Shown here piece after piece: positions 6,131 through 21,087 of a stretch of 64,000 nucleotides of DNA. The position numbers and the translations under genes were made by a program. Source of the stretch: Enterococcus phage vB_OCPT_CCS1; the sequence record ON113170.1. One strand, given 5' to 3'. Numbering within the stretch: the stretch's first letter is position 1; every line of letters starts with the position of its first letter. Under the pieces are notes generated by a model. The model saw only the letters and a list, made by a program, of their open reading frames with translations. It was not told the DNA's origin and searched no databases.

Positions 6131-6312
6131 ATGTACAAGAATCTATTTTATACGTTGCTCTAACCAAACTGAGCTACGGGAGGATGATTCCTCCCGGCAG
6201 GACTCGAACCTGCGACCCACGGCTCCATAGGCAATAAAAATCGCTGTTAGATTCTTTATGTTCCGGCACCCATTAAGGATGGAACTATAGCTATGCTAAA
6301 ACCGTTTTATTT
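6131..6312 (-). ncRNA. Y RNA-like ncRNA unit A: permuted tRNA-like domain clamped by a 15-bp helix with a 7-nt bulge
   Basis: Minus strand reads AAGAAUCU[AACAGCG]AUUUUUAU...GCAGGTTCGAGTCCTGC-CGGGAGG-ATCA-TCCTCCCG-TA-GCTCAGTTTGGTTAGAGC-AACG-UAUAAAAUAGAUUCUU. The acceptor strands are perfectly complementary across a 4-nt loop. The 3'-half lying before the 5'-half rules out a normal or intron-containing tRNA. Confidence 0.55.
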
Positions 6313-6500
6313 ATGTAACAAGAACGCATTAACTTTAAGCTTTACCAATTAAGCTATACCACCAATGGTGGCAGTTGGATTCGAACCAACAACTCACATT
6401 TTTCAGATGTATTAGTTTTAAAAATTTGCTGTGGCGTTCTTTATGTTCCGGCTACCTGTTAGGTTGGAACTATGACATATGTCAAAACCTTTTTATCTTG
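6313..6500 (-). ncRNA. Y RNA-like ncRNA unit B: conserved 5' stem-loop module plus a circularly permuted tRNA-like domain (anticodon-like hairpin, T-arm, closed acceptor hairpin, D-arm), closed by a bulged long stem
   Basis: Minus strand reads TACATCTGAAAAATGTG-AGTTG-GTTGGTTCGAATCCAAC-TGCCACC-ATT-GGTGGTA-TA-GCTTAATTGGTAAAGC. The 3' strand GCGTTCTT pairs with AAGAACGC located 5' of the domain. TTGACA-17-TATTAT promoter at 6506-6534. Confidence 0.55.
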
Positions 6501-6895: not shown

Positions 6896-7091
6896 GTATA
6901 AGTATGTATATATCAATACAATGTACAAGAACTTTTAGTGAGGTAGCTCTCATAGTGTATTAATGGGGTACATTGTGTAACTTCAACTAGTATTGCCTCA
7001 CACGTGACTAGTCTTATATACACAATGCCTACATACAACCCGATAGACCACCCTTGGTACGCATATTAAGAGGCGCAGGGTGGTACGAATA

Positions 7092-7162
7092 TATGGATTG
7101 CAGGATTTGAACCCGCACCTTTTTGACGGAAGCCAAAAATACTACCCTTATATTAAATCCAC
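7092..7162 (-). tRNA. tRNA-Gly(TCC), probable
   Basis: Acceptor GTGGATT/AATCCAT; loop CTTCCGT; T-arm GCGGGTTCAAATCCTGC. Confidence 0.45.
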
Positions 7163-7282
7163 ATAGTGTTAATAGGCGGGTACCCGACAGCGAAGTATCA
7201 TTCCTGTCTTGTCATTCTCCTATTAACTCCATAATACCTTGCCTAGAGTTGAGCTAGGTCTCACATTTATCGAAGGTACTAA

Positions 7283-7355
7283 TCGGGAAAGCAGGACTTG
7301 AACCTGCGACCCCACGCTCCCAAAGCGTGTGCGCTACCAACTGCGCTATTTCCCG
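7283..7355 (-). tRNA. tRNA-Pro(TGG)
   Basis: CGGGAAA-TA-GCGCAGTTGGTAGCGC-CACGC-TTTGGGA-GCGTG-GGGTC-GCAGGTTCAAGTCCTGC-TTTCCCG. Confidence 0.75.
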
Positions 7356-7370
7356 TTAACTTATACATAC

Positions 7371-7420
7371 ATTATAACACAAACTTACATGCTGTAAACA
7401 ACTATTTGTAAGTTTTTTTA
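7371..7420 (-). promoter_or_regulatory. promoter module: A-tract, hairpin, -35 TTTACA, 17 nt, extended -10 TGTTATAAT, upstream of tRNA-Pro
   Basis: Related copies at 15925-15975 and 16436-16470. Confidence 0.45.
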
Positions 7421-7433
7421 ATTTATCCATTCG

Positions 7434-7510
7434 GGACAGTGTGCTTTAACCATTCAGCCACCCGCAGGGGCAACCCGCAGGACGGGAATCGAACCCGTAT
7501 AACACTGTCC
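7434..7510 (-). ncRNA. tRNA-mimic (Y RNA-like) module: 9-bp closing stem, T-arm, closed acceptor-like hairpin, D-arm
   Basis: GGACAGTGT-TAT-ACGGGTTCGATTCCCGT-CCTGCGGG-TTGCC-CCTGCGGG-T-GGCTGAATGGTTAAAGC-ACACTGTCC. No anticodon arm; 5' and 3' ends base-pair. Confidence 0.55.
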
Positions 7511-7675
7511 TATTGGATAGGCTTGTGTACCTGTCATCTTCCGATTACACACACCTAGTCTAGTTACCGTACCAATAGATTTGACAGGAATCTAGGGTAA
7601 CGCCCAATATGGTGTTAATTCACCTCGTATTCTGTTACAGGTTTGCAACCCTGAACAAGGATGACCAATCCTAAT

Positions 7676-7742
7676 GATATGCGAGGGGATTTGAACCCCT
7701 ATCTACTTCATAGGTCACTTTATCCACTTAAGCTACGCATAC
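7676..7742 (-). ncRNA. truncated tRNA-like element (67 nt; acceptor, D-arm and T-arm present; anticodon arm reduced to about 16 nt)
   Basis: GTATGCG-TA-GCTTAAGTGGATAAAGT-GACCTATGAAGTAGAT-AGGGGTTCAAATCCCCT-CGCATAT. Confidence 0.4.
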
Positions 7743-7799
7743 CTATTTAATTTCTAGCTAGGTAACTAAATTCACTGCACCTTGCGCAGAGTACAGCTA

Positions 7800-7872
7800 T
7801 GGAGCATAGCGGACTTGAACCGCTGACATCTACCTTGCAAGGGTAGCGCTCTCCCAACTGAGCTAATGCCCC
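7800..7872 (-). tRNA. tRNA-Ala(TGC)
   Basis: GGGGCAT...CTACC-CTTGCAA-GGTAG...AGCGGTTCAAGTCCGCT-ATGCTCC. Confidence 0.75.
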
Positions 7873-7877
7873 GAAAA

Positions 7878-7950
7878 CACCTCCGCTGAGATTTGAACTC
7901 AGAATGCGGGATTAGAAATCCTGTGGTTTATCCAATTAGCCTACGGAGAT
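7878..7950 (-). tRNA. tRNA-Arg(TCT)
   Basis: Acceptor ATCTCCG/CGGAGGT; loop TTTCTAA; T-arm CTGAGTTCAAATCTCAG. Confidence 0.65.
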
Positions 7951-7954
7951 ATAC

Positions 7955-8119
7955 TTACTTAAACGGAAGATAAATTGTTTGACCAATTCTAATTTTATTA
8001 GGGTCTTTAATATTCCTATTCTGACCATGTAACCAAATTAGTCTCCATAACCAAGGCTTGCCATAATATTTTCTAGCAATAGAATACAATGTGTCACCTT
8101 TTTTAACTGTGTATTTCAT
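7955..8119 (-). CDS. stand-alone LysM-domain mini-protein (54 aa)
   Basis: Not in the ORF track (under 60 aa). ATG at 8119 with GGGGGT RBS; translates MKYTVKKGDTLYSIARKYYGKPWLWRLIWLHGQNRNIKDPNKIRIGQTIYLPFK, the classic LysM pattern. Confidence 0.5.
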   Translation of the reverse strand: MKYTVKKGDTLYSIARKYYGKPWLWRLIWLHGQNRNIKDPNKIRIGQTIYLPFK

Positions 8120-8148
8120 AACAATTACCCCCTAATTTATAAATATGG

Positions 8149-8517
8149 CTATATATAGGATACTCCTGTAAACAATTCAATTGCTTCAATTTCAGTATGG
8201 AAGTTTTCCCATTCTAAACATTCATAGAAATCTTGTAAGATATGCTTGTCTTTCCTGTAAACAGTCTCACCTTTATGGGCTTTCTCACAGATTTCTCTAA
8301 CAGCATCCACATTATATTTACCACCAGTTTTATACTGTTCTAAACCAGAATCTAGTAAAACTCGTTGTACTTCTTCACTCTTATCTCCTGCTTTCCAAGA
8401 GTCAAAAGCTTTATCATACAATGTATCTTCCATGTTTTCACCTTCTACTTCCATGATTGATTGAATAAATCTTTGCCACTTAGAAGGCTCTTTGTGTTTA
8501 CCTTTACGAAAACTCAT
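8149..8517 (-). CDS. hypothetical protein (122 aa)
   Basis: GGAGG RBS. Confidence 0.5.
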   Translation of the reverse strand: MSFRKGKHKEPSKWQRFIQSIMEVEGENMEDTLYDKAFDSWKAGDKSEEVQRVLLDSGLEQYKTGGKYNVDAVREICEKAHKGETVYRKDKHILQDFYECLEWENFHTEIEAIELFTGVSYI

Positions 8518-8544
8518 TATTAGCCTCCATTATCTTTAATGAAC

Positions 8545-8631
8545 CGAGGAGGAGGGACTCGAACCCCCAAACGCTTTTACACGTCTACATGATTTCAAAT
8601 CACGCTGAATACCAGTTATGATACTCCCCGA
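8545..8631 (-). tRNA. tRNA-Ser(TGA), class II, atypical D-arm
   Basis: Acceptor CGGGGAG/CTCCTCG; anticodon arm CGTGA-TTTGAAA-TCATG; long variable arm. Confidence 0.5.
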
Positions 8632-8741
8632 AAAAGAAACTGATTGACTAGTACTGTTAGTTGACTAGTCAACCGGAACTACTTAAACCGAACTCTTTAA
8701 ACAGCTTTAGTAGTTATTATTTAGGTTTTTAAATAAACAAC

Positions 8742-9002
8742 TTACCAAAACCAAACTAGATTTAATGCTAGTCGTTTACTAATAATAGGTGATTTTCTAT
8801 GTCTAACCGATTTAAACTTACGTACATTCCCCTTATATGGTGTAAAGTCAATCTTACAAGGTTCAACATAATTAAATTTACGGTTAGCTCGTTTAATTAC
8901 TGCTTGCTTTTGTTTAGAAGCTTTAATTTCTTTTTCAAATGCTTCTTTTTCAATGTTGTTAGCTATGGTTGCTAAATGTTCAGTCATAAAGCTCATGTCC
9001 AT
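8742..9002 (-). CDS. hypothetical basic protein (86 aa)
   Basis: AAGGAG RBS; lies just downstream of tRNA-Ser(GGA). Confidence 0.4.
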   Translation of the reverse strand: MDMSFMTEHLATIANNIEKEAFEKEIKASKQKQAVIKRANRKFNYVEPCKIDFTPYKGNVRKFKSVRHRKSPIISKRLALNLVWFW

Positions 9003-9021
9003 CTCTCCTTACACGTTCTAT

Positions 9022-9108
9022 GGAAGGCATGGGATTCGAACCCACACATGCTGTTACACATCTACTTGGTTTCCAACCAAGCCTCTTTACCGTTTGAGTA
9101 ACCTTCCG
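9022..9108 (-). tRNA. tRNA-Ser(GGA), class II
   Basis: GGAAGGT-TA-CTCAAACGGTAAAGAG-CTTGG-TTGGAAA-CCAAG, long variable arm, GTGGGTTCGAATCCCAT-GCCTTCC. Confidence 0.7.
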
Positions 9109-9202
9109 TCTTGGGAGCAGGCGGGTTTGTGTCAAGTACACAATACCTAATCTTCTGTGCATGTTGTTCCCTAGGCTTTATGCACACCCTACTATCTGCA
9201 TA

Positions 9203-9388
9203 CTAACAGACCTGCCAATTTTCTAACACTTTTTCTAATGCTTCGTATGGACACATTACTGTCTTACCGTGAACACCATGTATTCTCAAAATAATATAAT
9301 GTTCATTTATCTCAGAGGTAACAAAGTATATCTTGTCTTTCACTAAACCTAAACTTCCGTTTAAACCAATGAATTTTAAATACATCAT
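9203..9388 (-). CDS. hypothetical protein (61 aa)
   Basis: AAGGAGG RBS. Confidence 0.4.
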   Translation of the reverse strand: MMYLKFIGLNGSLGLVKDKIYFVTSEINEHYIILRIHGVHGKTVMCPYEALEKVLENWQVC

Positions 9389-9539
9389 GTTACCTCCTTA
9401 TTATGTATAACCCATGAAGCATCATGGGGGGACTGTAGTATGCCCAACCTGCGGGGATGCTCCGCTCTGAATCCGTAGAAATCAGCCACAATTCGATATT
9501 TATTTAATGAAAAAATTAGATAGGATTCGACTGCTTGAC

Positions 9540-9640
9540 AAAGGCAGTCTATGGAGTAGACGGGACTCGAACCCGTGTCCTAACGTAGAACCATACAAAA
9601 TTCTACGGGCGTAGTTACTAGTTTTAATCTACGTTAAGGT
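9540..9640 (-). ncRNA. tRNA-like/Y-like structured element: canonical T-arm (ACGGGTTCGAGTCCCGT) followed by a closed hairpin GACTGC-CTTTGTCAA-GCAGTC, preceded by a 7-bp hairpin CGTAGAA...TTCTACG; no matching 5' acceptor strand
   Basis: Hand folding; the 3' acceptor CTACTCC has no GGAGTAG partner anywhere upstream. Confidence 0.35.
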
Positions 9641-10132
9641 TACAACTAATAACTGAAATTACCTTAACTGAGTGGTAAAGCCTCTCCTGAGTTATCCACT
9701 TTTACCTCAGCGTTGTCGGTTGATGAGTCCTCTAGGTAGAACCGACCCTAGTCTAGAGGGGTAAGTGTGTAGCTAGTCTAAAACTAGGCTACAGCTAATA
9801 ATTCTTCGTTTTTAGCAGTTATATTTACTGCGATGATTAAGTCATCACTCTGCCCGCTATTCATATACTCCTTACGCCAGTCGAAACCAAAACTACCCCA
9901 ACATAAGAATTTCTTTTGACTAACCCTACCCTTCCGGCAGGGTCTAATCAAAAGTATACAATTAAAAAAATGAAAATGAGTTACGGAAAATGTAACGTCT
10001 CCACCACCGGACTATAAGGGTAAGTTGTTCCGGTCTTTAACCTAAGTACTTTACTTAAATCTAACAGGACAGCCTTCATTACGTAAACTACTTAACCATG
10101 TAAAACGTAAAGGTCAATTTCCGTTGACCTAA

Positions 10133-10206
10133 TGCAAGAGGGGGGATTCGAACCCCCACTGAATAGATTCTAAGTCTACTTCCTCTGCCAGTTGGGATAC
10201 TCTCGC
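10133..10206 (-). tRNA. tRNA with anticodon TAG (Leu-type anticodon) but a short 5-nt variable arm; atypical
   Basis: GCGAGAG...GTAGA-CTTAGAA-TCTAT-TCAGT-GGGGGTTCGAATCCCCC-CTCTTGC. Confidence 0.45.
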
Positions 10207-10290
10207 ATAATAACAGCCCTACCCAACCGCTGTTCTGCTAGCATATAGCTTGCAGGCTTTTTATCTGTGTTATAAAAACCAGAAAGGCTA

Positions 10291-10374
10291 TACGGGTAAC
10301 AGGAGTCGAACCTGCATGTCACAAGGGACAATGGATTTTAAGTCCACAGCGTATACCAGTTCCGCCATACCCGC
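10291..10374 (-). tRNA. tRNA-Leu(TAA), class II
   Basis: GCGGGTA...GTGGA-CTTAAAA-TCCAT, long variable arm, GCAGGTTCGACTCCTGT-TACCCGT. Confidence 0.7.
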
Positions 10375-10552
10375 ATAATCACTTTTTAAACTAGATTATT
10401 TATGATTTCCCACTTCTGAAAAAAATACCACTTTATATATCAACATTTTTCTTATGAATGGGTTAAGATATGTTTTAACGAAAAAGAGGCTAAAAGAGTA
10501 TTTCCTCAAAATTTTTTGTCAAGTTAATCTAGTAAGGAAAAGTGTAACCTTA

Positions 10553-10623
10553 TGTGACTGCTCAGAATCGAACTGAGATTCATGTTTCCACAGAACACTG
10601 CCTTACCGTTAGGCTACAGTCAC
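10553..10623 (-). tRNA. tRNA-His(GTG) with encoded G-1
   Basis: (G)GTGACTG-TA-GCCTAACGGTAAGGC-GTGTT-CTGTGGA-AACAT...TCAGTTCGATTCTGA-CAGTCAC. Confidence 0.75.
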
Positions 10624-10637
10624 CATCATGTGTTCCT

Positions 10638-10676
10638 TACAAGAATTACTATACAGCATCTTGTAAGGAAAGTCAA
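10638..10676 (-). promoter_or_regulatory. promoter TTGACT-17-TATAGT with the -10 box embedded in a 10-bp palindrome CCTTACAAGA/TCTTGTAAGG (operator-like), upstream of tRNA-His
   Basis: Motif, spacing and dyad symmetry. Confidence 0.45.
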
Positions 10677-10695
10677 CACTTAAATGTAATTTTAT

Positions 10696-10917
10696 TTAAA
10701 AAAGTTTTGATGAATCTAATTGAGAGAAACTTTCAGGTAGAGAACCTAGTTCTTCCATATACTCTTGGTCAATCTCATAAACAGATAACTCGGTTACTTC
10801 GTTTTCAATAGTAAGTTTCATTGCTTCTGCTGTTTGTATACTGTGTCCTTCTATTTGAAGTTTATCATCAAGATAAATACCTTCCCAGTCTTCTGCAACT
10901 ACATAGTCTGCTTTCAA
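10696..10917 (-). CDS. hypothetical acidic protein (73 aa; TTG start as in the ORF track)
   Basis: Frame offset by one from the upstream ORF, which stops 9 nt away. Confidence 0.35.
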   Translation of the reverse strand: MKADYVVAEDWEGIYLDDKLQIEGHSIQTAEAMKLTIENEVTELSVYEIDQEYMEELGSLPESFSQLDSSKLF

Positions 10918-10925
10918 GATATTAC

Positions 10926-11177
10926 CTACTTTCTTCTCAATTTCTGATAAAAATTATTATTCTTGTAATCATCCTCGTGGGCATAGAATTTTTTCATGTC
11001 ATATGTCCAACAAGTTTCTTCTACTCGTTTATGATGTGTCAATGTTACTTCGTCATCAAAACAACCTTGATTTAATTTATGCCTGTAATTTCTATTAACC
11101 ATTCTTTTTATATCTCGAACAGTTGAATCTTTCATACAAACATAACGGTAATAGGGTTTTCTGTAACTTCTACTCAT
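10926..11177 (-). CDS. hypothetical basic protein (83 aa)
   Basis: AAGGAGG RBS. Confidence 0.45.
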   Translation of the reverse strand: MSRSYRKPYYRYVCMKDSTVRDIKRMVNRNYRHKLNQGCFDDEVTLTHHKRVEETCWTYDMKKFYAHEDDYKNNNFYQKLRRK

Positions 11178-11331
11178 TGTAAGTCCTCCTTAATAGATAC
11201 TTACAATTTAGACAATACTTTCTTCACAGGAACCACTCCTTATTAATAAAAGCTACCTCCCGAAAAACGTTTCTTCACCAAAGTGTAAGACGTAAACTAA
11301 CGACAGGTCATAGTTTTCCAATTAAGGCAAA

Positions 11332-11405
11332 TACCAGTGAGAGGATTTGAACCTCTGACACCCGCCTTATCAAGACGATGCTCTAACCAACTGAGCTACA
11401 CTGGT
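11332..11405 (-). tRNA. tRNA-Ile(GAT)
   Basis: ACCAGTG-TA-GCTCAGTTGGTTAGAGC-TCGTC-TTGATAA-GGCGG-AGAGGTTCAAATCCTCT-CACTGGT. Confidence 0.7.
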
Positions 11406-11558
11406 GTGACCCATGTGTCAGGACTTTCACCTGTTCTCGGGGTGCCCCGCCTCTCTACTAATCTCCTCATTCGGTGCCCCTACTAGAGTGACTAGAGATA
11501 GTTAGCAATAAAAATTATATATCATGAATCAAATTTTTACTGCATCCTATATACACGA

Positions 11559-11630
11559 TACCGTCTACAGGATTTGAACCTGTGACATCCACCTTGTAAG
11601 GGTGACGTTCTCCCACTGAACTAAGACGGT
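11559..11630 (-). tRNA. tRNA-Val(TAC)
   Basis: ACCGTCT-TA-GTTCAGTGGGAGAAC-TCACC-CTTACAA-GGTGG-ACAGGTTCAAATCCTGT-AGACGGT. Confidence 0.7.
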
Positions 11631-11699
11631 GAAATATGGAACCCTACCAGAGGATTTCTTTCGGTATTACAGTCACCTCGGCATGAACAAAGCCAGATA

Positions 11700-11760
11700 T
11701 TGAGGTCTGGACTTCTCACGCCCCGGGAGTCGAACCCAGTATAGACAAACCATATTTTAT
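11700..11760 (-). ncRNA. tRNA-like fragment (T-arm CTGGGTTCGACTCCCGG plus 3' acceptor GGCGTGA without a 5' partner)
   Basis: Hand folding. Confidence 0.3.
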
Positions 11761-11854
11761 ACGGAAGACAGGATTCGAACCTGCGATATAGGAGTTTTAG
11801 TGCACTTATTGTCTCCACGGTATCCGTTGCGTATGCCCTACACGCCACTTCCGT
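11760..11854 (-). ncRNA. long (95 nt) atypical tRNA-like gene: acceptor ACGGAAG/CTTCCGT, D-arm and T-arm canonical, but no resolvable anticodon arm (contains GGAG...CTCC with a 20-nt insert)
   Basis: Hand folding; could be an unusual class II tRNA or a decoy. Confidence 0.35.
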
Positions 11855-11861
11855 ATGTTAA

Positions 11862-11934
11862 CCGACAGTAAAGGAATCGAACCTCTATCACTAGATTCGT
11901 AGTCTAGTATCCTATCCAATTGAACGAACTGTCG
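11862..11934 (-). tRNA. tRNA-Arg(ACG)
   Basis: CGACAGT...CTAGA-CTACGAA-TCTAG...AGAGGTTCGATTCCTTT-ACTGTCG. Confidence 0.6.
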
Positions 11935-12036
11935 CTCTAGGCTAGCAATTACGCAGACTGACTATGGGCACCTTCGTCCCGTCCCCTGTAAGTGCCCTCC
12001 TACAGGTTGTCCGTGGCACCGCAATGTACTAACCGA

Positions 12037-12110
12037 TGTCCCCACAGGGATTTGAACCCCGAACCTCCCGATTAAAAGTCGGGTGCTCTAGCCGATTGAG
12101 CTATGAAGAC
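12037..12110 (-). tRNA. tRNA-Lys(TTT)
   Basis: GTCTTCA-TA-GCTCAATCGGCTAGAGC-CCCGA-CTTTTAA-TCGGG-CGGGGTTCAAATCCCTG-TGGGGAC. Confidence 0.7.
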
Positions 12111-12159
12111 AGTTGTGTTTTTCAAGATAACCCTCTCGAAAAACCGTTACTAATAGAAA

Positions 12160-12242
12160 AACTAAGGGTCTCGACTGACAGATTTGAACTGCCTGCTCCT
12201 CCTAAGAGGCGTGTTACCAAAGCCATACACCAACTCTTCGAG
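12160..12242 (-). ncRNA. aberrant tRNA-like element (good T-arm GGCAGTTCAAATCTGTC, weak acceptor pairing 5/7, no standard anticodon arm)
   Basis: Hand folding; overlaps the 3' end of tRNA-Lys(CTT). Confidence 0.3.
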
Positions 12243-12243
12243 A

Positions 12244-12318
12244 ATATCCCCTACAGGATTCGAACCTGTGACCCCCTGATTAAGAGTCAGGTGCTACCAC
12301 CAACTGAGCTAAGGAGAT
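12244..12318 (-). tRNA. tRNA-Lys(CTT)
   Basis: ATCTCCT...CCTGA-CTCTTAA-TCAGG-ACAGGTTCGAATCCTGT-AGGGGAT. Confidence 0.65.
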
Positions 12319-12334
12319 AAGATTACCAATAGCT

Positions 12335-12412
12335 AGTTAAGCCTTACGGAATCGAACCGCCATGAGGTTATGAAGCTCACATAGACCACTAGACACAAAA
12401 CTAGCTTATTGA
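12335..12412 (-). ncRNA. aberrant tRNA-like element (T-loop TTCGATT; acceptor 5/7)
   Basis: Hand folding. Confidence 0.3.
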
Positions 12413-12510
12413 TAAAATTCTATATAGATAATTGTATGCAATGTTCGCACTAACTAACCAGATAACTAGCCAATCATTCAAAACATTAATTTGTGAGTTT
12501 CCGCTCACAA

Positions 12511-12582
12511 TGCTGATTGAGAGAATCGAACTCCCATTCCCGGGTTACAAAGCCGGAGTAATAGCCGTTATACTAAATCAGC
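12511..12582 (-). tRNA. tRNA-Thr(TGT)
   Basis: GCTGATT-TA-GTATAACGGCTATTAC-CCGGC-TTTGTAA-CCCGG-GGGAGTTCGATTCTCTC-AATCAGC. Confidence 0.65.
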
Positions 12583-12584
12583 GT

Positions 12585-12604
12585 AACCCCTCAATAGAGG
12601 GGAA
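12585..12604 (-). terminator. hairpin CCCCTC-AATA-GAGGGG after the AAA ATPase stop codon
   Basis: Stem-loop. Confidence 0.3.
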
Positions 12605-12607
12605 TTA

Positions 12608-13699
12608 TTATACTAGGTTACCATACCCGTAGGTATTTGTTTGAGCTTGTTTAAACATGATGCTCTTGATAGTTAAGTCGTTGTACTTTTCATCGTCTTC
12701 ATCATCAAGGTACACATCAACGTTAACGTTCTTACCGGAAATACCGATTGTTTCGTCTTTACCAACTGTTAAGTCTTTACTGTTGAATGATACATCAAAG
12801 TAGATGCTATCTTCTTTTGTACGACTACCGAACGAAACTCTGTCACCGAATAAATCTAAGCTTCGAGAGTTGATTACAACAGGTTGTAACCCACCTTCGA
12901 ATTGAATAGTTACTGTGTAATATTGATTTTCAATATTAAGGATGTTTAAGTCAGCAATAGCTTCACCAAATGGGATACCAAAGTTTAATTCCAACGCAAT
13001 AGCTCGTAAGCAGTCATAATTTAACTTAATTCTACGGCTAAACTTAACAACACTGTCAATTTCACCATAGTAAGCTTCGTCTAACTTATCTTGCAAGTAA
13101 GTACGAATTTCATCTGCATCAGGATATTCGAAACGTAAATGGTAATGAAAACGTCCCGGACGGTTAAGCATAAAGTCATTTACACGATTTAAGCTATTAA
13201 CAGTAAGAGCGTAGATACGTTTACGTTGTGATAAACCATCGAATAAGCTCAATAGTTTTTCTTGTGGTTCACGACCGTCACGGTCATTGAATACTTTTTC
13301 AAACTCATCGAACAGGATAAGAGACTCTTGGTCAATACTGTCAATAAATTCTGCAATCCCCGGATAAGCTTCTGTAATTAAGATAACAGGCATACCCTCT
13401 TCAATAGCTCGTTGAGATAAGATTTGAGTAAATAGTGATTTACCAATCCCTTTGTCTCCACTTAAAATGATTCCTAAGCTACGATTAATTGTTTTAAATG
13501 TGTGTAGCACTTTTTCAATTTTAGCTAAACGGTCACCGTAAACTTTAGGTTCTTTCAAATCAAAATCGTCTGTTACTACTAGCGAGAACCCTGACATTTG
13601 ATTGAACCGAACTTTATAAGTTTGCGCAGGTAACTTATCATAAGTTTTAAGGTCGTTTGCATAAATTTCATAGTTACTACCATAGTTGATTACTTTCAT
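12608..13699 (-). CDS. AAA+ family ATPase (classical AAA clade)
   Basis: Start taken at MKVINYG (AAGGGG RBS). Walker A GDKGIGKS, Walker B LILFDEFE, second region of homology NRPGRFHYHLRF. Embedded in the tRNA operon. Confidence 0.75.
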   Translation of the reverse strand: MKVINYGSNYEIYANDLKTYDKLPAQTYKVRFNQMSGFSLVVTDDFDLKEPKVYGDRLAKIEKVLHTFKTINRSLGIILSGDKGIGKSLFTQILSQRAIEEGMPVILITEAYPGIAEFIDSIDQESLILFDEFEKVFNDRDGREPQEKLLSLFDGLSQRKRIYALTVNSLNRVNDFMLNRPGRFHYHLRFEYPDADEIRTYLQDKLDEAYYGEIDSVVKFSRRIKLNYDCLRAIALELNFGIPFGEAIADLNILNIENQYYTVTIQFEGGLQPVVINSRSLDLFGDRVSFGSRTKEDSIYFDVSFNSKDLTVGKDETIGISGKNVNVDVYLDDEDDEKYNDLTIKSIMFKQAQTNTYGYGNLV

Positions 13700-13738
13700 A
13701 AATATTCCCCTTATTCGTGTTTTACTAGCATTTGCTAA

Positions 13739-13812
13739 TGGAGAGGGGTGGAATTGAACCACCGACCCCTAGGGTTTCAATCTAGTGCTCTAACCTACTG
13801 AGCTACCTCTCC
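13739..13812 (-). tRNA. tRNA-Phe(GAA)
   Basis: GGAGAGG-TA-GCTCAGTAGGTTAGAGC-CTAGA-TTGAAAC-CCTAG-GGTGGTTCAATTCCACC-CCTCTCC. Confidence 0.6.
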
Positions 13813-13933
13813 GTGTCAATTTGGACTTATCCCCCACGTGGTTACTAAGATAAGTCCTATGCCTTTGAAGTGTGGATACTCAAAAATGAGTACAGGTACT
13901 AAAAATCTGATGACAAGTCAGATTTATATCATA

Positions 13934-14004
13934 AGCAGAAGGTGAGATTCGAACTCACATTCAGGGGTTTGCAATCCCTAGCCTTAACCACTTGGCTACT
14001 TCCG
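13934..14004 (-). tRNA. tRNA-Cys(GCA)
   Basis: GCGGAAG-TA-GCCAAGTGGTTAAGGC-AGGGA-TTGCAAA-CCCCT-GTGAGTTCGAATCTCAC-CTTCTGC-T. Confidence 0.7.
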
Positions 14005-14017
14005 CAATATCAAAATA

Positions 14018-14089
14018 CACGCTGTGAAGGATTCGAACCCCCGTCTTCCGGGTTGGAGCCGGAAATGATAGCCACTACACCAACAGCGC
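14018..14089 (-). tRNA. tRNA-Trp(CCA)
   Basis: GCGCTGT...TCCGG-CTCCAAC-CCGGA...GGGGGTTCGAATCCTTC-ACAGCGT. Confidence 0.65.
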
Positions 14090-14164
14090 AAGATTCGGAG
14101 GGGAGGGACTAGCAACCCTCCGAAAGATGTAAGATAATGAGAGATTAAAACATACCACTATTAA

Positions 14165-14215
14165 AAGTGGAATAGGTAATTAAGGATTCGAACCTTACAA
14201 GCCCTTACTGCTTAC
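14165..14215 (-). ncRNA. mini tRNA-like remnant (acceptor plus T-arm only, about 48 nt) immediately downstream of a promoter
   Basis: AGGTAAG-CAGTAAGGGCTTG-TAAGGTTCGAATCCTTA-ATTACCT. Confidence 0.3.
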
Positions 14216-14226
14216 CTTGTAAACTT

Positions 14227-14255
14227 ATAGTATCATGTGTTGTACCGAAAGTCAA
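14227..14255 (-). promoter_or_regulatory. promoter TTGACT-17-TACTAT
   Basis: Motif and spacing; a CTTGTAA motif lies nearby. Confidence 0.4.
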
Positions 14256-14274
14256 CACTTTTTATAAAAATAAT

Positions 14275-14294
14275 AGGGAGAAATATTTCTCCCT
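14275..14294 (-). terminator. perfect palindrome AGGGAGAAATATTTCTCCCT followed by a U-rich tract (minus sense), between tRNA-Met and the upstream promoter
   Basis: Hairpin plus AUUAUUUUUAUAAAA. Confidence 0.45.
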
Positions 14295-14300
14295 AAAAAA

Positions 14301-14373
14301 TGGACTACTTGGGAATCGAACCCAAACCTGTCAGTTATGAGCTGACGGCTCTGACCTACTGAGCTAATAGTCC
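14301..14373 (-). tRNA. tRNA-Met(CAT) (Met or lysidine-Ile cannot be distinguished)
   Basis: GGACTAT-TA-GCTCAGTAGGTCAGAGC-GTCAG-CTCATAA-CTGAC-TGGGTTCGATTCCCA-GTAGTCC. Confidence 0.75.
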
Positions 14374-14406
14374 GTGTAATAATACCACGAAATAAACCTT
14401 AGTAAG

Positions 14407-14508
14407 TCATACAGTCCCAGAAAGGGAGGCATATGATACTAGTGTTGAGTGCCATAATCGTTTAATAAATGTGACTGAGAGAGTAATAAATTTCTTAGGC
14501 ATGTCCAT
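14407..14508 (-). CDS. possible 33-aa peptide MDMPKKFITLSVTFIKRLWHSTLVSYASLSGTV
   Basis: AAAGGAGG RBS 5 nt before the ATG; flanked by a 14-bp inverted repeat (GGGAGGCATATG / CATATGCCTCC). Confidence 0.3.
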   Translation of the reverse strand: MDMPKKFITLSVTFIKRLWHSTLVSYASLSGTV

Positions 14509-14580
14509 ATGCCTCCTTTCCAATAATGATAGTTTTAAGATATAAACAGAATAAATAAAAGAGAAAATAATAATGAATAA

Positions 14581-14652
14581 TAGCGCATGAGAGAGTCGAA
14601 CTCTCGATTCCGGTTCGAAAGACCGGTGTCTTGACCGCTTGACCAATGCGCC
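14581..14652 (-). tRNA. tRNA-Glu(TTC)
   Basis: GGCGCAT-TG-GTCAAGCGGTCAAGAC-CCGGT-CTTTCGA-ACCGG-GAGAGTTCGACTCTCTC-ATGCGCT. Confidence 0.75.
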
Positions 14653-14657
14653 ATAAA

Positions 14658-14732
14658 CGAGCTATATGGGACTTGAACCCATGACCTTCTCCGTGACAGG
14701 GAGACGAGCACTCCTGACTGCTCCAATAGCCC
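14658..14732 (-). tRNA. tRNA-Asp(GTC)
   Basis: GGGCTAT-TG-GAGCAGTCAGGAGTGCTC-TCTCC-CTGTCAC-GGAGA-ATGGGTTCAAGTCCCAT-ATAGCTC. Confidence 0.75.
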
Positions 14733-14769
14733 AATGTTTCCCCAACCACCGCCACCTAGGGGATTCGTA

Positions 14770-14890
14770 CGTCTACGTGAGTTTTTTGGTTATAGTTCCT
14801 TGTTTAAGACAAGGAAGTACGAGTGGACTACCAATTTACCACTCTGCGGTTCTGATTGCGGTAGGTGGGATATGTAAGATAAAAAGACCA
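14770..14890 (-). pseudogene. degenerate tRNA-like sequence (mutated T-loop GTACGAATCC; 7-bp anticodon-like stem TTCCTTG-TCTTAAA-CAAGGAA)
   Basis: Hand folding. Confidence 0.3.
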
Positions 14891-14899
14891 CTCTTAGAA

Positions 14900-15917
14900 T
14901 GATTTAATCTGTAAAAAACACATCGCATAAACGAGATGCAGTTATAGCTCTATCAAGCAACCTACACCGATTCCGTCGATTACTACCGACATCGCCTTGC
15001 TCGTGTACTTTGAGCGCCCATTTCCAACCCTCGGTTGCTAATGTTTCTCTCCTAACCTACACCTGAGAGTGGCACACGTCTGTGCTAGTATTTTATGCCT
15101 ATTAACTGATTCGCAGGCACACTGCTTAATTCAGCCAACCAATCGGCATCCGATAAGATTGATTGTTTCCGTAGGTTCTTTAAGTCACTGGAGTGGTACT
15201 GCCCCACTCACGCCTATTAAAGTGTTAACTTAATAGATAAAAACTACTCATAACAGGTTTACTACCATAGCATTCTCTACTTCCGCCACAGTGACATGTT
15301 TAAAAACTCAAAACTTAATAGATTAAGGGCTTTTCTTCCTGCTTCATATACACTCACTGCATTCGGTCACATACTCAGAGAGGCTGAACCATCGGGAGCT
15401 ACCCGATAGCTTCTCTCTGCCTTTAATGTATGGTCTAGCACGGTGGCTAACAACGTTCACCTAAACATTCAGCTATTAAAAGTATTAATTAACATATATC
15501 CTTATGTCTTCTATAATATTTTCATCAAAAGCTGACTTAGGCTACTTGTACCAAGGTCTCTTGTTAAACCTGTATTTCTACAGTTCTCGTCAAAGGGAGT
15601 CTTTTGAGTTTTCCAAGGTCTGCCAAGCTTCTCACACTTCCACCTAACTTGGATTCTTTTCCACAGGAACGTCTATTGTATCCCCCAAGAGTCTTGTACC
15701 TTACAATCCATGTATACTCCACATAACGCTTAACTGATATTAGCTTTTACTAATAGTTACTCCTATGTTACCATAAGACCTACCTGCAACCCAAAGCACT
15801 ATCGCACCTTCGGTTACATTCAGATTCACGCCACGCTATCCTAGCAAGCTGTTCAAACTTTCTGCACTAGGTTCAAAATCTATTAAGTTTTCAATTTTTA
15901 ACCACTAACTTGTGGTG
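14900..15917 (-). ncRNA. candidate large structured ncRNA (about 1 kb ORF-free, GC-balanced, hairpin-rich); GOLLD/ROOL-like is the suggested class from context only
   Basis: No ORF of 60 aa or more on either strand across roughly 1 kb inside the tRNA array; local stems such as GAGTGG-tactgcc-CCACTC and nested CAGAGAG..ATCGGG-AGCTA-CCCGAT..CTCTCTG; dedicated promoter at 15925-15953. Confidence 0.35.
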
Positions 15918-15924
15918 TAATACT

Positions 15925-15975
15925 AATATAGCATAACATTACAAAGTTGTAAACACCTTTTTGTAAGTTTTTTTG
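15925..15975 (-). promoter_or_regulatory. promoter module: A-tract, -35 TTTACA, 17 nt, TGCTATATT, driving the ORF-free 1 kb segment
   Basis: Motif and spacing; near-identical to the module at 7371-7420. Confidence 0.45.
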
Positions 15976-15987
15976 ATTTTTTTTTGA

Positions 15988-16075
15988 TGGAAGGTAAGGG
16001 GGTCGAACCCTTACACCGGATTTCTCCGACCTAACTGATTAGCAATCAGCCCTATTACCATTTGAGTAACCTTCC
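15988..16075 (-). tRNA. tRNA-Ser(GCT), class II
   Basis: GGAAGGT...GCTGA-TTGCTAA-TCAGT, long variable arm, AAGGGTTCGACCCCCTT-ACCTTCC. Confidence 0.65.
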
Positions 16076-16085
16076 AAAAACAAAA

Positions 16086-16108
16086 AGGGAACCCCTGTAA
16101 TTAAACAG
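16086..16108 (-). terminator. hairpin CCCCTGT-AATTAA-ACAGGGG followed by UUCCCUUUUUGUUUUUGG
   Basis: Minus-sense terminator just upstream of tRNA-Ser(GCT). Confidence 0.4.
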
Positions 16109-16184
16109 GGGTAAGAGAGATGTCTCTAAAAGCCTACAACCATTATAACATAGAAACATAGTTTGTACAGCCGTAACTGTACAA

Positions 16185-16256
16185 CTGTCAGGACAGGGTT
16201 CGAACCTGTATCGTAACTTCCAAAGAGTTATGTCCTACCTATTAGACGACCTGACA
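16185..16256 (-). tRNA. tRNA-Gln(TTG)
   Basis: TGTCAGG-TC-GTCTAATAGGTAGGAC-TAACT-CTTTGGA-AGTTA-ACAGGTTCGAACCCTGT-CCTGACA. Confidence 0.75.
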
Positions 16257-16347
16257 AAAGGTGGAACCTCCCTAAATTTGGGGAAGAGGGAGGTTATCAT
16301 GCTATTAACAAACACGAATCTGCTAACCAAGTAATCTTGACTAGCAA

Positions 16348-16418
16348 CTCACCTAGCAGGACTTGAACCTACAAGAACTGGTTAACAGCCAGTCATGATA
16401 CCGTTTCATCATAGGTGA
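16348..16418 (-). tRNA. tRNA-Asn(GTT)
   Basis: TCACCTA-TG-ATGAAACGGTATCAT-ACTGG-CTGTTAA-CCAGT-GTAGGTTCAAGTCCTGC-TAGGTGA. Confidence 0.75.
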
Positions 16419-16435
16419 ATTTTAGTTCTATCAAC

Positions 16436-16470
16436 ATTATAACACAAAAGCTGATAGAACTAGCAACTTT
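16436..16470 (-). promoter_or_regulatory. extended -10 promoter TGTTATAAT within the loop of an inverted repeat, upstream of tRNA-Asn (first gene of the array)
   Basis: Motif. Confidence 0.4.
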
Positions 16471-16658
16471 TTTACAAACTTAACAACTTTTTTCTTAACT
16501 ACTGATTCAGCAACTTACTCAATAGTTAAAGACTTAAAGAAAGAGGAAGTAATTGAGGTATGTCAATCACTAACTAAAGTATACAACATTTTTATCATCC
16601 TGACAACAACTAAATACAAAAAGTTCAAAAAAGATTATAAATAGTTAAATTATCAGAA

Positions 16659-16803
16659 TATTCAAATTAATGTCCTATTTTAAATTTTTGACCTCCTTAT
16701 ATACTTAATACTATATATTAAATATATATATCTAAATTATATAAATATTAGACTATATATTATTAATATATATAAGACTTGCAAAAAATTAAAATAGGAC
16801 ATT
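16659..16803. repeat. AT-rich element E1 bounded by perfect 15-bp terminal inverted repeats AATGTCCTATTTTAA / TTAAAATAGGACATT
   Basis: Second copy at 20853-20981 with shared internal CCTTATATA...TAATACTATATAT motifs; both sit between transcription units. Confidence 0.6.
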
Positions 16804-16852
16804 TTTCTGACAATTCACTTTTAGATAAAAAGAAAGAGAGCAAAATGCCCTC

Positions 16853-17191
16853 TTACCGTGTTTCAAAGTATTCCTTGATTGTATACTCTCTAGCTTCTTT
16901 AGCTTCATCAGTTTCATCTTTAGGAGCTAAATACAAGTCAGTAATTGTAGCAGGTACCTCTACCATCTTGTAGTCAATAAAAGTAGCTTGACGTAGATTT
17001 AAGTATCGAATACCTGTTGTTCTATCAGTACCTGTATGAACAGGCAAGAAAGTTAATTCTTTACCTCTGACAGAGCCATTAGCTTGTGTTAGTGCATCAA
17101 CTACAGTTCCGCCCATATAGCGTGGAAATAGGTAAACCTTGTCAGTACCTACTGTAATTTCTGCGACCTTTTCGTGTGTTGGATAGTTCAC
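16853..17191 (-). CDS. hypothetical protein (112 aa, GTG start)
   Basis: ORF track. Confidence 0.45.
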   Translation of the reverse strand: MNYPTHEKVAEITVGTDKVYLFPRYMGGTVVDALTQANGSVRGKELTFLPVHTGTDRTTGIRYLNLRQATFIDYKMVEVPATITDLYLAPKDETDEAKEAREYTIKEYFETR

Positions 17192-20844: not shown

Positions 20845-20852
20845 AAAAGCAA

Positions 20853-20981
20853 AATGTCCTATTTTAATTTTTCTACGTCCTTATATATTAATACTATATA
20901 TCTATATACCTATATCTAGTTATTAAGTATATATAGTATAATATATTATATAAGGGAGACAAAAATTTAAAATAGGACATT
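20853..20981. repeat. AT-rich element E2 with the same 15-bp terminal inverted repeats
   Basis: See E1. Confidence 0.6.
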
Positions 20982-21087
20982 TTTATCAAATTAGCTATTG
21001 ATTGACAAAAAATAATATGCTATTATACTACTTGTCAATAATAGCACTAGTTATTTTTCTTGTCATAACAATAAAGGAGACGTTTAC

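Follow-up and report, generated by a model that had tools for sequence, protein, structure and literature searches.

ROOL RNA and a neighbouring modular RNA element with a tRNA-like domain in the tRNA array of Enterococcus phage vB_OCPT_CCS1

The stretch of DNA analysed here ('the window') comprises 64,000 nucleotides (nt) of Enterococcus phage vB_OCPT_CCS1 (accession ON113170.1), within which an initial annotation, made from the letters alone, had marked positions 14900–15975 as a candidate large non-coding RNA. We find that this interval is a composite, in which two non-coding RNA genes probably lie next to each other on the minus strand: ROOL, an already known family, followed by a second element, here called X, which appears to be an undescribed one. 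Our tentative reading of X is that of a new class of phage structured RNA: a recombining modular cassette in which a decoding-dead mimic of tRNA-Leu would act as an RNase P/RNase Z handle, releasing a small junction-type RNA (GCAACC-GAGGG...GUGUA-GGUUGC) late in infection; the cassette being shared by temperate siphophages, where it occupies the ArpU late leader, and by virulent Herelleviridae, where it sits beside ROOL.

Judged by DNA similarity, the source is a virulent phage of Enterococcus that belongs to Schiekvirus (Herelleviridae): 1.3 kb surrounding the flagged interval are 98% identical to Enterococcus phages vB_Edu_21C1 and Porthos, and the same 1.3 kb match 67 Enterococcus phage records (Herelleviridae, Brockvirinae: Schiekvirus and, at 89%, Kochikohdavirus). 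The interval lies inside an array (7091–16419) that comprises 24 tRNA genes and a single tmRNA gene, each of them encoded on the minus strand. Two of its general features had been read correctly from the start: the listing of open reading frames (ORFs) confirms that none of 60 amino acids (aa) or more exists on either strand between 14902 and 16779, and the composition is indeed balanced relative to the AT-rich spacers, with a GC fraction of 0.37–0.46 across 14900–15900 against 0.16–0.29 across 16400–16900.

The ROOL gene and its promoter-like site

Reading along the minus strand, the first of the two genes encodes a full-length ROOL RNA of 587 nt (15309–15895; Rfam RF03087), which accounts for ~55% of the flagged interval; the remainder being element X. 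When the whole window was scanned against the Rfam 15 covariance models at gathering thresholds, RF03087 matched with 267.8 bits (gathering score 99.1; E = 4.1e-60), untruncated and over model positions 1–574 of 574. The alignment contains the outer helix and most of the internal helices, with few non-canonical pairs, and has the size, the multi-junction layout and the AU-rich variable internal loop of the family. The minimum free energy (MFE) of the segment is also exceptional (z = -4.4, with none of 100 shuffles as stable), and in this independent fold the 5' and 3' ends again pair with each other. The gene is kept at 89–99% identity in the 67 Enterococcus Herelleviridae records, and in the Kochikohdavirus (phiEF24C-like) genomes DNA homology to the window starts and stops exactly at its borders (query 600–1197). 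We therefore regard 15309–15895 as almost certainly a ROOL gene.

The suggestion of a large non-coding RNA of GOLLD or ROOL kind beside the tRNA genes has thus turned out well as regards ROOL, which has the orientation of the tRNA genes and follows the promoter module that had been named; a search with both models, as had been proposed, returned the full-length ROOL match, and no match to GOLLD (RF01998) either in the whole window at gathering score or in 14700–15400 at E values up to 10. What has to be amended is the idea of one RNA of ~1 kb: the interval is structured and non-coding as predicted, but holds two elements, ROOL with its 587 nt and a separate cassette at 14876–15295. The two helices that had been given as examples divide accordingly, the nested CAGAGAG..ATCGGG-AGCTA-CCCGAT..CTCTCTG being found at ~15376–15419 as a helix of ROOL (model positions ~462–500), and GAGTGG-TACTGCC-CCACTC, present at 15191–15209, belonging not to ROOL but to X, as its T-arm-like hairpin.

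ROOL RNAs average 581 nt and are found in phages and prophages near tRNAs, with no function yet known (PMC5737381); the proximity to phage tRNA islands has been described repeatedly (PMC12286853, PMC5737381). The monomer, a multi-junction fold, self-assembles into a hollow homo-octameric cage, as seen by cryo-EM (PMC12286853). According to a commentary (PMC12515178), Ling et al. have solved the structure of an E. faecalis ROOL, and find that RNA fused to the 3' end leaves assembly undisturbed. In size, architecture, phage origin, tRNA-island position and strand the gene described here fits the family, and we find no family-defining difference; what sets the locus apart is that ROOL is followed by X, at the place where sister phages have a tRNA.

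None of the 40 related phage records that we compared annotates ROOL, the locus being either blank or covered by a 'hypothetical protein', and relatives carry such calls over both ROOL and X (e.g. 21C1_221 to 21C1_223). A 37-aa ORF on the plus strand of the window (15296–15409) overlaps the 3' end of ROOL and matches phrog_27041, a PHROG family with no assigned function, at chance level (E = 0.39); some protein families may have been built from mis-called ORFs on ROOL and X RNA genes.

Some 30 nt upstream of ROOL position 1 there is a sigma-70-type promoter-like site (15925–15953, minus strand), consisting of a -35 element TTTACA, a 17-nt spacer and a TG-extended -10 element TATATT. The minus-sense module that had been proposed for this place is found at 15953–15925 with 10 of 12 matches plus the TG (TG-n-TATATT). 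Promoter-like matches in the region are no commoner than in shuffles (7 found, 7.6 expected), so that this single match is weak evidence by itself; the strongest argument that ROOL has a promoter of its own is the recurrence of such a site, in stronger form, in phage phiEF17H, where TTGACA-18-TG-n-TATTAT (11 of 12 matches) lies ~30 nt upstream of ROOL in a non-homologous flank. The spacer between the 3' end of ROOL and the tRNA-like domain of X (15296–15308, minus strand; AGUUUUUAAACAU) is, at 13 nt, too short for a promoter-like site, and our scan of this gap found none. Taken from the sequence, the most likely arrangement is co-transcription of ROOL and X from the site at 15953–15925.

Element X and its modules

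The X cassette (15295–14876, minus strand) begins 13 nt downstream of ROOL, and its borders can be read off from phages that do not have it. In EfV12-phi1 both sides of the window align (14500–14870 and 15297–16100), and the 426 nt between them (14871–15296) are replaced by 71 nt that form most of a tRNA-Met(CAT) gene. The same holds for most Schiekvirus relatives, which cover only 67% of the query and have the tRNA-Met gene in the place of X; the 426-nt segment is found in only six deposited phages, at 98.8–99.3% identity to the window copy.

The first module of X is a tRNA-like domain (15183–15295, minus strand), delineated by folds, covariation and a covariance model, R1. The window copy has a 7-base-pair (bp) acceptor-like stem (GUCACUG/CAGUGAC) and a D-arm sequence of tRNA-Leu type, followed by a long central hairpin instead of the anticodon and variable arms, and a T-stem of 6 bp (GAGUGG/CCACUC) whose 7-nt loop is non-canonical; the discriminator is U and there is no CCA. 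The D-arm sequence (UGGCGGAA..GGUAGACGC) is the same in the window's tRNA-Leu(TAA) gene (10290–10375). When each of 15 distinct variants is MFE-folded alone, all adopt the same cloverleaf-like shape, in which an acceptor-like stem of 7 bp and a D arm are joined by a central arm that varies and by a T stem of 6 bp bearing a loop of 7 nt. In the trimmed alignment 92.9% of the cells are paired and six pairs are changed on both sides, a level reached by none of 500 shuffles, with slid controls at 29–47% paired; across the alignments of the tRNA-like module 92–93% of cells are paired, and slid controls reach 28–50%. The T-stem covaries at five of its six pairs over the 50 distinct sequences retrieved by the covariance model (4–5 of six across alignments), and the acceptor stem GUCACUG/CAGUGAC becomes GUCGCUG/CAGCGAC in EH-TP1, a phage of E. 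hirae, while other members show the intermediate pairs A-C and G-U. R1 scores the window module at 47.8 bits, this copy having been part of the training alignment; with default filters the model misses the Schiekvirus-type copies in a large multi-locus search, and recovers that of the window in a search restricted to the window.

A 7-bp acceptor stacked on a T stem-loop, a D arm and covariation, the hallmarks by which we tested for a tRNA-like structure, are all found, though the T and D loops of the window copy are non-canonical. The region of the anticodon arm is variable in both sequence and length, and in phiFL2A it is absent altogether. The window module is called neither by ARAGORN, even with relaxed settings, nor by the Rfam tRNA model RF00005; prophage copies are called by relaxed ARAGORN only when an 'intron' is allowed, and the anticodons so assigned are inconsistent. 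A real tRNA at 15183–15295 was rejected on the grounds that no detector calls one and that the anticodon arm is variable or missing. The domain is best described as a tRNA-Leu-derived mimic that has kept the top half of the molecule (acceptor, D and T arms) and lost the decoding half. With tRNA-Leu and other type II tRNAs it shares the acceptor stem, U8, the D-arm sequence and a U-first trailer lacking CCA, as well as, in most members, a T arm with a UUCGAUU loop; unlike them it has no anticodon arm, a T stem of 6 bp, and a discriminator that is in most cases U and not A. In some prophage leaders two such modules stand in tandem (L067, 10953–11277; L052, 89–413), and in most prophage copies a long conserved hairpin (GAUAGACAGCAGCGGA...UCCGUUGCUGUCUAU) lies upstream of the first module, ending 7–9 nt before the acceptor stem.

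The second module, block C (15047–15177, minus strand), is an optional element of the family, predicted by RNAalifold to be a multi-helix junction closed by AACCUAC/GUAGGUU. Three of its 32 predicted pairs show compensatory changes; for example, CAAUCAAUC/GAUUGGUUG is matched by CAAUUCAUC/GAUGAAUUG, and GCACAG..UGUGC by GCGCAG..GCGC, and one hairpin is swapped wholesale between variants. The third module, the core or block D (14956–15039, minus strand), was delimited by pattern matches and has the frame AGCAACC-GAGGG...GUGUA-GGUUGCU around two hairpins. At least five non-homologous interiors occur within this frame, all keeping the closing helix and two internal hairpins, and in the E. hirae and E. 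thailandicus types a C-G pair of the closing helix becomes U-A; the core corresponds to no known motif that we could identify. The comparison of relatives for covariation, suggested in the initial annotation, therefore lends support to the helices of the X modules, and many G-U pairs of the tRNA-like module and of block C fit the minus (tRNA-sense) strand only.

Two terminator-like elements follow the core on the minus strand: a hairpin with a U6 tract (14913–14939), which has one U-C mismatch here and is perfect in Porthos, and a second hairpin, AUCAUUC-UAA-GAGUGGU followed by CUUUUUAUCUU (14876–14903), recognised by alignment and weak in the window. In the prophage copies the homologue of the latter is a canonical terminator, GAUCACUC-UUU-GAGUGGUC-U5AU4.

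Neither known RNA families nor proteins account for X. At E values up to 10, Rfam 15 places no family in 14700–15400 except the end of ROOL and a 12-bit chance match (mcrA), and the prophage copies of X yield chance-level matches only (miRNA models on the upstream hairpin; TLS-PK5 with 16.6 bits, where the gathering score is 70). The short ORFs of X have no Pfam match and one chance-level PHROG match (E = 0.39), and the longest ORF on the minus strand (40 aa) is interrupted by a stop in the DA9 type and has no start in the L009 type. We have on this basis rejected an rRNA fragment and a protein-gene remnant, the latter being the outcome that, according to the initial annotation, would have spoken against a structured RNA. 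An insertion into, or group I intron of, tRNA-Met was likewise set aside: exons do not flank X, Porthos has a whole tRNA-Met beside X, and no intron model matches. The signature motifs of X were not found in the published literature, and targeted searches for tRNA-like elements, ArpU and late leaders returned nothing relevant. All in all, we consider it probable that X is a selected structured RNA.

Distribution and history of the X family

A sensitive DNA search of plasmid records recovered pieces of X at 84–98% identity in 36–41 kb 'plasmids' of E. faecium. Four of these (L008–L011; PLSDB NZ_CP042838.1, NZ_CP059741.1, NZ_LR135421.1 and CP063545.1), listed as non-mobilizable, encode ArpU, terminase, portal and other phage genes, and look like temperate siphophage genomes, possibly phage-plasmids or excised prophages. 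In these replicons X lies in an unannotated gap of ~800 nt between the gene for the late regulator ArpU and the HNH or terminase (terS) genes, in the direction of the genes, and there is no ROOL. In phage phiFL2A, ArpU binds three 7-nt repeats downstream of arpU and activates the late promoter (PMC3753634); we find that these repeats lie upstream of the tRNA-like module in both phiFL2A and the E. faecium prophages. Two transcriptome studies of E. faecium list prophage small RNAs (sRNAs), notably the 298-nt sRNA_1940 of the Aus0004 prophage phiEnfa003 (PMC5593968); no sequence matching X is contained in their supplements.

Pattern scans with the core frame, made over IMG/VR, metagenomes and 185,579 species-representative genomes, gave 123 matches, or ~118 once five chance ones had been removed, representing 29 unique sequences. 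A wider spread of the frame was considered and dropped: three of the matches (L095, L105 and L113), located in DNA that is unrelated or rich in GC, arose by chance, and the mismatched closing helix of L106 suggests the same for it. Phage copies come from E. faecium, E. hirae, E. gallinarum and E. faecalis. The genuine matches among the species-representative genomes are confined to two, E. thailandicus and Ca. E. wittei, a further one being a chance match in a coding region.

The order of the modules is the same throughout the family: a tRNA-like domain of 76–292 nt, optional inserts of 3–370 nt, the core of 64–82 nt and, after a further 10–108 nt, an intrinsic terminator. Among the optional inserts are the ~130-nt junction domain (block C), another domain of ~100 nt, or a genuine tRNA-Lys. 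Wherever there is enough upstream DNA the tRNA-like module is found ahead of the core (78 of 78 loci), the metagenome scan adding 25 more copies with this module, and a terminator lies downstream of the core in 87 of 88 copies. More than 40 combinations of modules occur, which makes the family highly mosaic.

Block C and the core of the window share 97.8% identity across 227 nt with a prophage-type replicon of E. faecium, which implies that temperate siphophages have recently exchanged DNA with virulent myophages. Porthos and 21C1 retain both the tRNA-Met gene and the X segment, together with an additional strong terminator hairpin, and in Porthos X is bracketed by a 46-nt direct repeat of the 3' end of ROOL (L003, 1746–1791 and 2247–2292; spacing 501 nt), as it is in 21C1. 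The repeat resembles the att-like duplications of elements that insert at tRNA 3' ends; X carries no recombinase. Relative to these two phages the window has lost ~148 bp, comprising most of tRNA-Met, the duplicated ROOL end (one copy of the repeat) and the strong terminator, and leaving as a remnant the last 14 nt of the tRNA-Met(CAT) gene (14857–14870, minus strand; compare L003, 1661–1822). The truncated gene is the array's second tRNA-Met(CAT), labelled 'tRNA-Pseudo-CAT' in Porthos, and another tRNA-Met remains at 14301–14373. We speculate that the deletion, in removing the strongest terminator of X, restores read-through into the downstream tRNA-Asp and tRNA-Glu genes; for these no minus-strand promoter-like site was found in 14870–14733.

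The spacer between the tRNA-Met remnant and tRNA-Asp (14734–14856, minus strand) is conserved in Schiekvirus relatives. It holds two strong hairpins, GAGUGG..CCACUC and UUCCUUG-UCUUAAA-CAAGGAA, the latter with a 7-nt loop centred on UAA, and a G-rich 3' tract (GGUGGCGGUGGUUGGGG) that pairs over ~12 bp with the 3' end of tRNA-Met; uncalled by ARAGORN and Rfam, it may be a degenerate type II tRNA-like element. Farther along the array, between tRNA-Trp and tRNA-Met, a lone perfect T-arm (UAAGGUUCGAAUCCUUA; 14181–14197, minus strand) stands where the rest of a tRNA is not detectable; in phage EFP01 (L004, ~1370–1480) a piece homologous to it comes after a strong promoter-like site (TTGACT-17-TACTATAAG) directly behind the terminators of X.

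Elsewhere in the array, small ORFs of 50–122 aa are interspersed with the tRNA genes, as is one of 384 aa (12608–13762), annotated as an ATPase or clamp loader in relatives. The tmRNA gene (9549–9899, minus strand; 142.7 bits) encodes the tag peptide AKNEELLAVA. In the IMG/VR contig L033 it is replaced by a stand-alone tRNA-like module of X type (6263–6394), located between tRNA-Leu(TAG) and sequence matching window position 9493. A very AT-rich (GC ~0.16–0.25), partly palindromic sequence occurs twice in the window: at 16656–16816, just upstream of the start of the array, where it overlaps promoter-like matches, and at 20848–20984, where it matches a copy in L033 in both orientations at 74–79% identity.

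A proposed tRNA-like processing handle and its alternatives

In the mechanism that we propose, ROOL and X would be made as a single transcript starting from 15953–15925, in which the tRNA-like domain would be a processing handle that separates ROOL from the structured RNA downstream. RNase P would cut at 15296/15295, in doing so also trimming ROOL to a short 3' tail, and an RNase Z-type cut after the discriminator base (after 15183) would then release the RNA made of blocks C and D, ending at its own terminator. The freed C–D RNA would be stable, expressed late, and trans-acting. The scheme is inferred rather than demonstrated, and we think it plausible while stopping just short of calling it probable.

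Several observations point towards such a handle. The acceptor/T minihelix is the part of a tRNA recognised by RNase P, RNase Z and the CCA-adding enzyme, as their minihelix substrates demonstrate, and it is this minihelix, together with the D arm, that the family conserves. At position -1 most copies have U, CCA is not encoded, and the trailer begins with U; these end features agree with those of the phage's 24 true tRNAs, none of which encodes CCA and ~20 of which have a U-first trailer. In the minimal forms the next structured module follows only 3–6 nt after the 3' end of the mimic. Genuine tRNAs occupy the same slots in some members, as in E. thailandicus (L093) and in L009, L044 and L087, where a tRNA-Lys immediately precedes block C or the core; and in sister phages that lack X, tRNA-Met follows ROOL at about the same distance.

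Comparable arrangements are familiar from other systems. Elements shaped like tRNAs recruit RNase P and/or RNase Z to longer non-coding transcripts in MALAT1-mascRNA and in the tRNA-miRNA transcripts of murine gammaherpesvirus 68, and the stable RNAs of phage T4 (species 1 and 2) lie within its tRNA cluster. These resemble X in how they would work only, there being no sequence relationship; X has its tRNA-like element ahead of the structured RNA, and cleavage is something that we infer. GOLLD is closer in setting, as a large structured RNA of phages and prophages next to tRNAs, some members of which hold tRNAs in an internal linker (PMC12286853), just as some members of X hold tRNA-Lys between modules; X is, in comparison, much smaller, and its consensus is unrelated.

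A number of points weigh against the handle and against X as a class of its own. The T loop of the window copy, GGCAGUA, is non-canonical, its D loop is without GG and ARAGORN makes no call, so that this copy may be a poor substrate for RNase P; the stack of acceptor and T stems is moreover 13 bp long, compared with 12 bp in ordinary tRNAs. The covariation counts are inflated by shared descent, many of the copies being close relatives, and the structure under test was derived from the same sequences. Folding is unremarkable on either strand (z = -1.2 on the minus and -2.0 on the plus strand for the whole of 14871–15308; -1.4 to -2.1 for the separate modules), so that the structure of X has comparative evidence alone behind it. 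The two terminal hairpins of the window copy were not reported by a consensus terminator scan. X must be dispensable, missing as it is from most sister phages, and the window copy is short of ~148 bp that included its strongest terminator; the family as a whole is phylogenetically narrow, being essentially restricted to Enterococcus phages.

Set against processing, the most substantial alternative is that X acts in cis within the late leader, as a terminator-based attenuator, a riboswitch-like sensor or a put-like read-through RNA, the copy in the present virulent phage being a recombinational passenger. Lambdoid late leaders, with 6S RNA/tR' and the HK022 put RNAs, offer a ready comparison. 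In prophages X is invariably placed after the ArpU-dependent late promoter and ahead of the first late gene, whose orientation it shares, and thus exactly in the ArpU-activated (ArpU/RinA-type) leader, ending at a terminator upstream of the packaging genes (PMC3753634); the intrinsic terminator stands 10–108 nt after the core and directly before the ribosome-binding site, and the core itself looks the size of an aptamer, a junction with invariant junction nucleotides. Yet ArpU alone activated a terS reporter through the phiFL2A leader (PMC3753634), and no antitermination or attenuation role for a leader of this type is reported in that context or was found here by inspection. Nor did inspection, which was not followed by a systematic search, reveal a mutually exclusive antiterminator pairing; in one candidate, between the acceptor stem and an arm of the terminator, the 5-nt similarity does not covary, EH-TP1 and phiFL2A each changing one partner alone. 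Genuine tRNAs and inserts of up to 370 nt inside X sit better with a string of processed RNAs than with a compact sensor, and in the Schiekvirus phages X, with no late protein genes downstream, precedes tRNA genes. We regard a primarily cis-acting X as unlikely.

It is also conceivable that ROOL and X form one uncleaved unit, X or the tRNA that replaces it being a natural 3' cargo displayed outside the octameric cage. The 13-nt gap devoid of a promoter-like site would agree with this, as would the tRNA-Met found at the same position in sister phages; and, in the commentary cited above, RNA fused to the 3' end of ROOL, a tRNA precursor included, is described as displayed radially with assembly undisturbed (PMC12515178). 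X nonetheless occurs without ROOL in ~100 temperate-phage loci and ROOL without X in ~60 phages, and in phiEF17H ROOL is followed by a long hairpin, with a tRNA only ~110 nt later. As RNase P and RNase Z have tRNAs and tRNA-like elements for their canonical substrates, one would by default expect cleavage. We consider an uncleaved unit distinctly improbable. Least probable to our minds is that X in the window is decaying, non-functional debris of recombination, or else a site that acts as DNA (a recombination or packaging signal). Its patchy presence (six of 67 related phages), the near-identity to a prophage-type replicon and the recent transfer that this suggests, the 46-nt duplication around the cassette in Porthos and, in the window, the 148-bp deletion, the mismatch in the first terminator hairpin and the non-canonical T loop could all be so explained. 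The six Schiekvirus copies are, on the other hand, intact from the tRNA-like domain to the terminators, and DNA sites leave unexplained why helices of the family are kept through compensatory changes and wholesale replacements, with G-U pairs specific to one strand. In HNH-type phages with HK97-like packaging the cos site, moreover, lies downstream of the HNH gene, and not at X.

Returning to the processing handle, its appeal lies in what it would say about phage RNAs more widely. Few natural RNAs besides ROOL are known to form a closed cage, and the present locus offers a compact and genetically tractable case, in that natural sister phages differ only in what follows ROOL: tRNA-Met or X. X itself is an apparently unrecorded RNA family, placed in the late-operon leader of many temperate E. 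faecium phages and moving between these and virulent phages of the kind under development for therapy; in the related phage and prophage records that we inspected, both RNAs are unannotated or hidden beneath spurious 'hypothetical proteins'. If our reading is true, phages would quite generally use handles shaped like tRNAs for the maturation of ornate RNAs, ROOL among them; such handles would explain the long-noted linkage of ROOL and GOLLD with tRNA genes, and the neighbouring tRNA, or its mimic, may be what defines the 3' ends of these RNAs.

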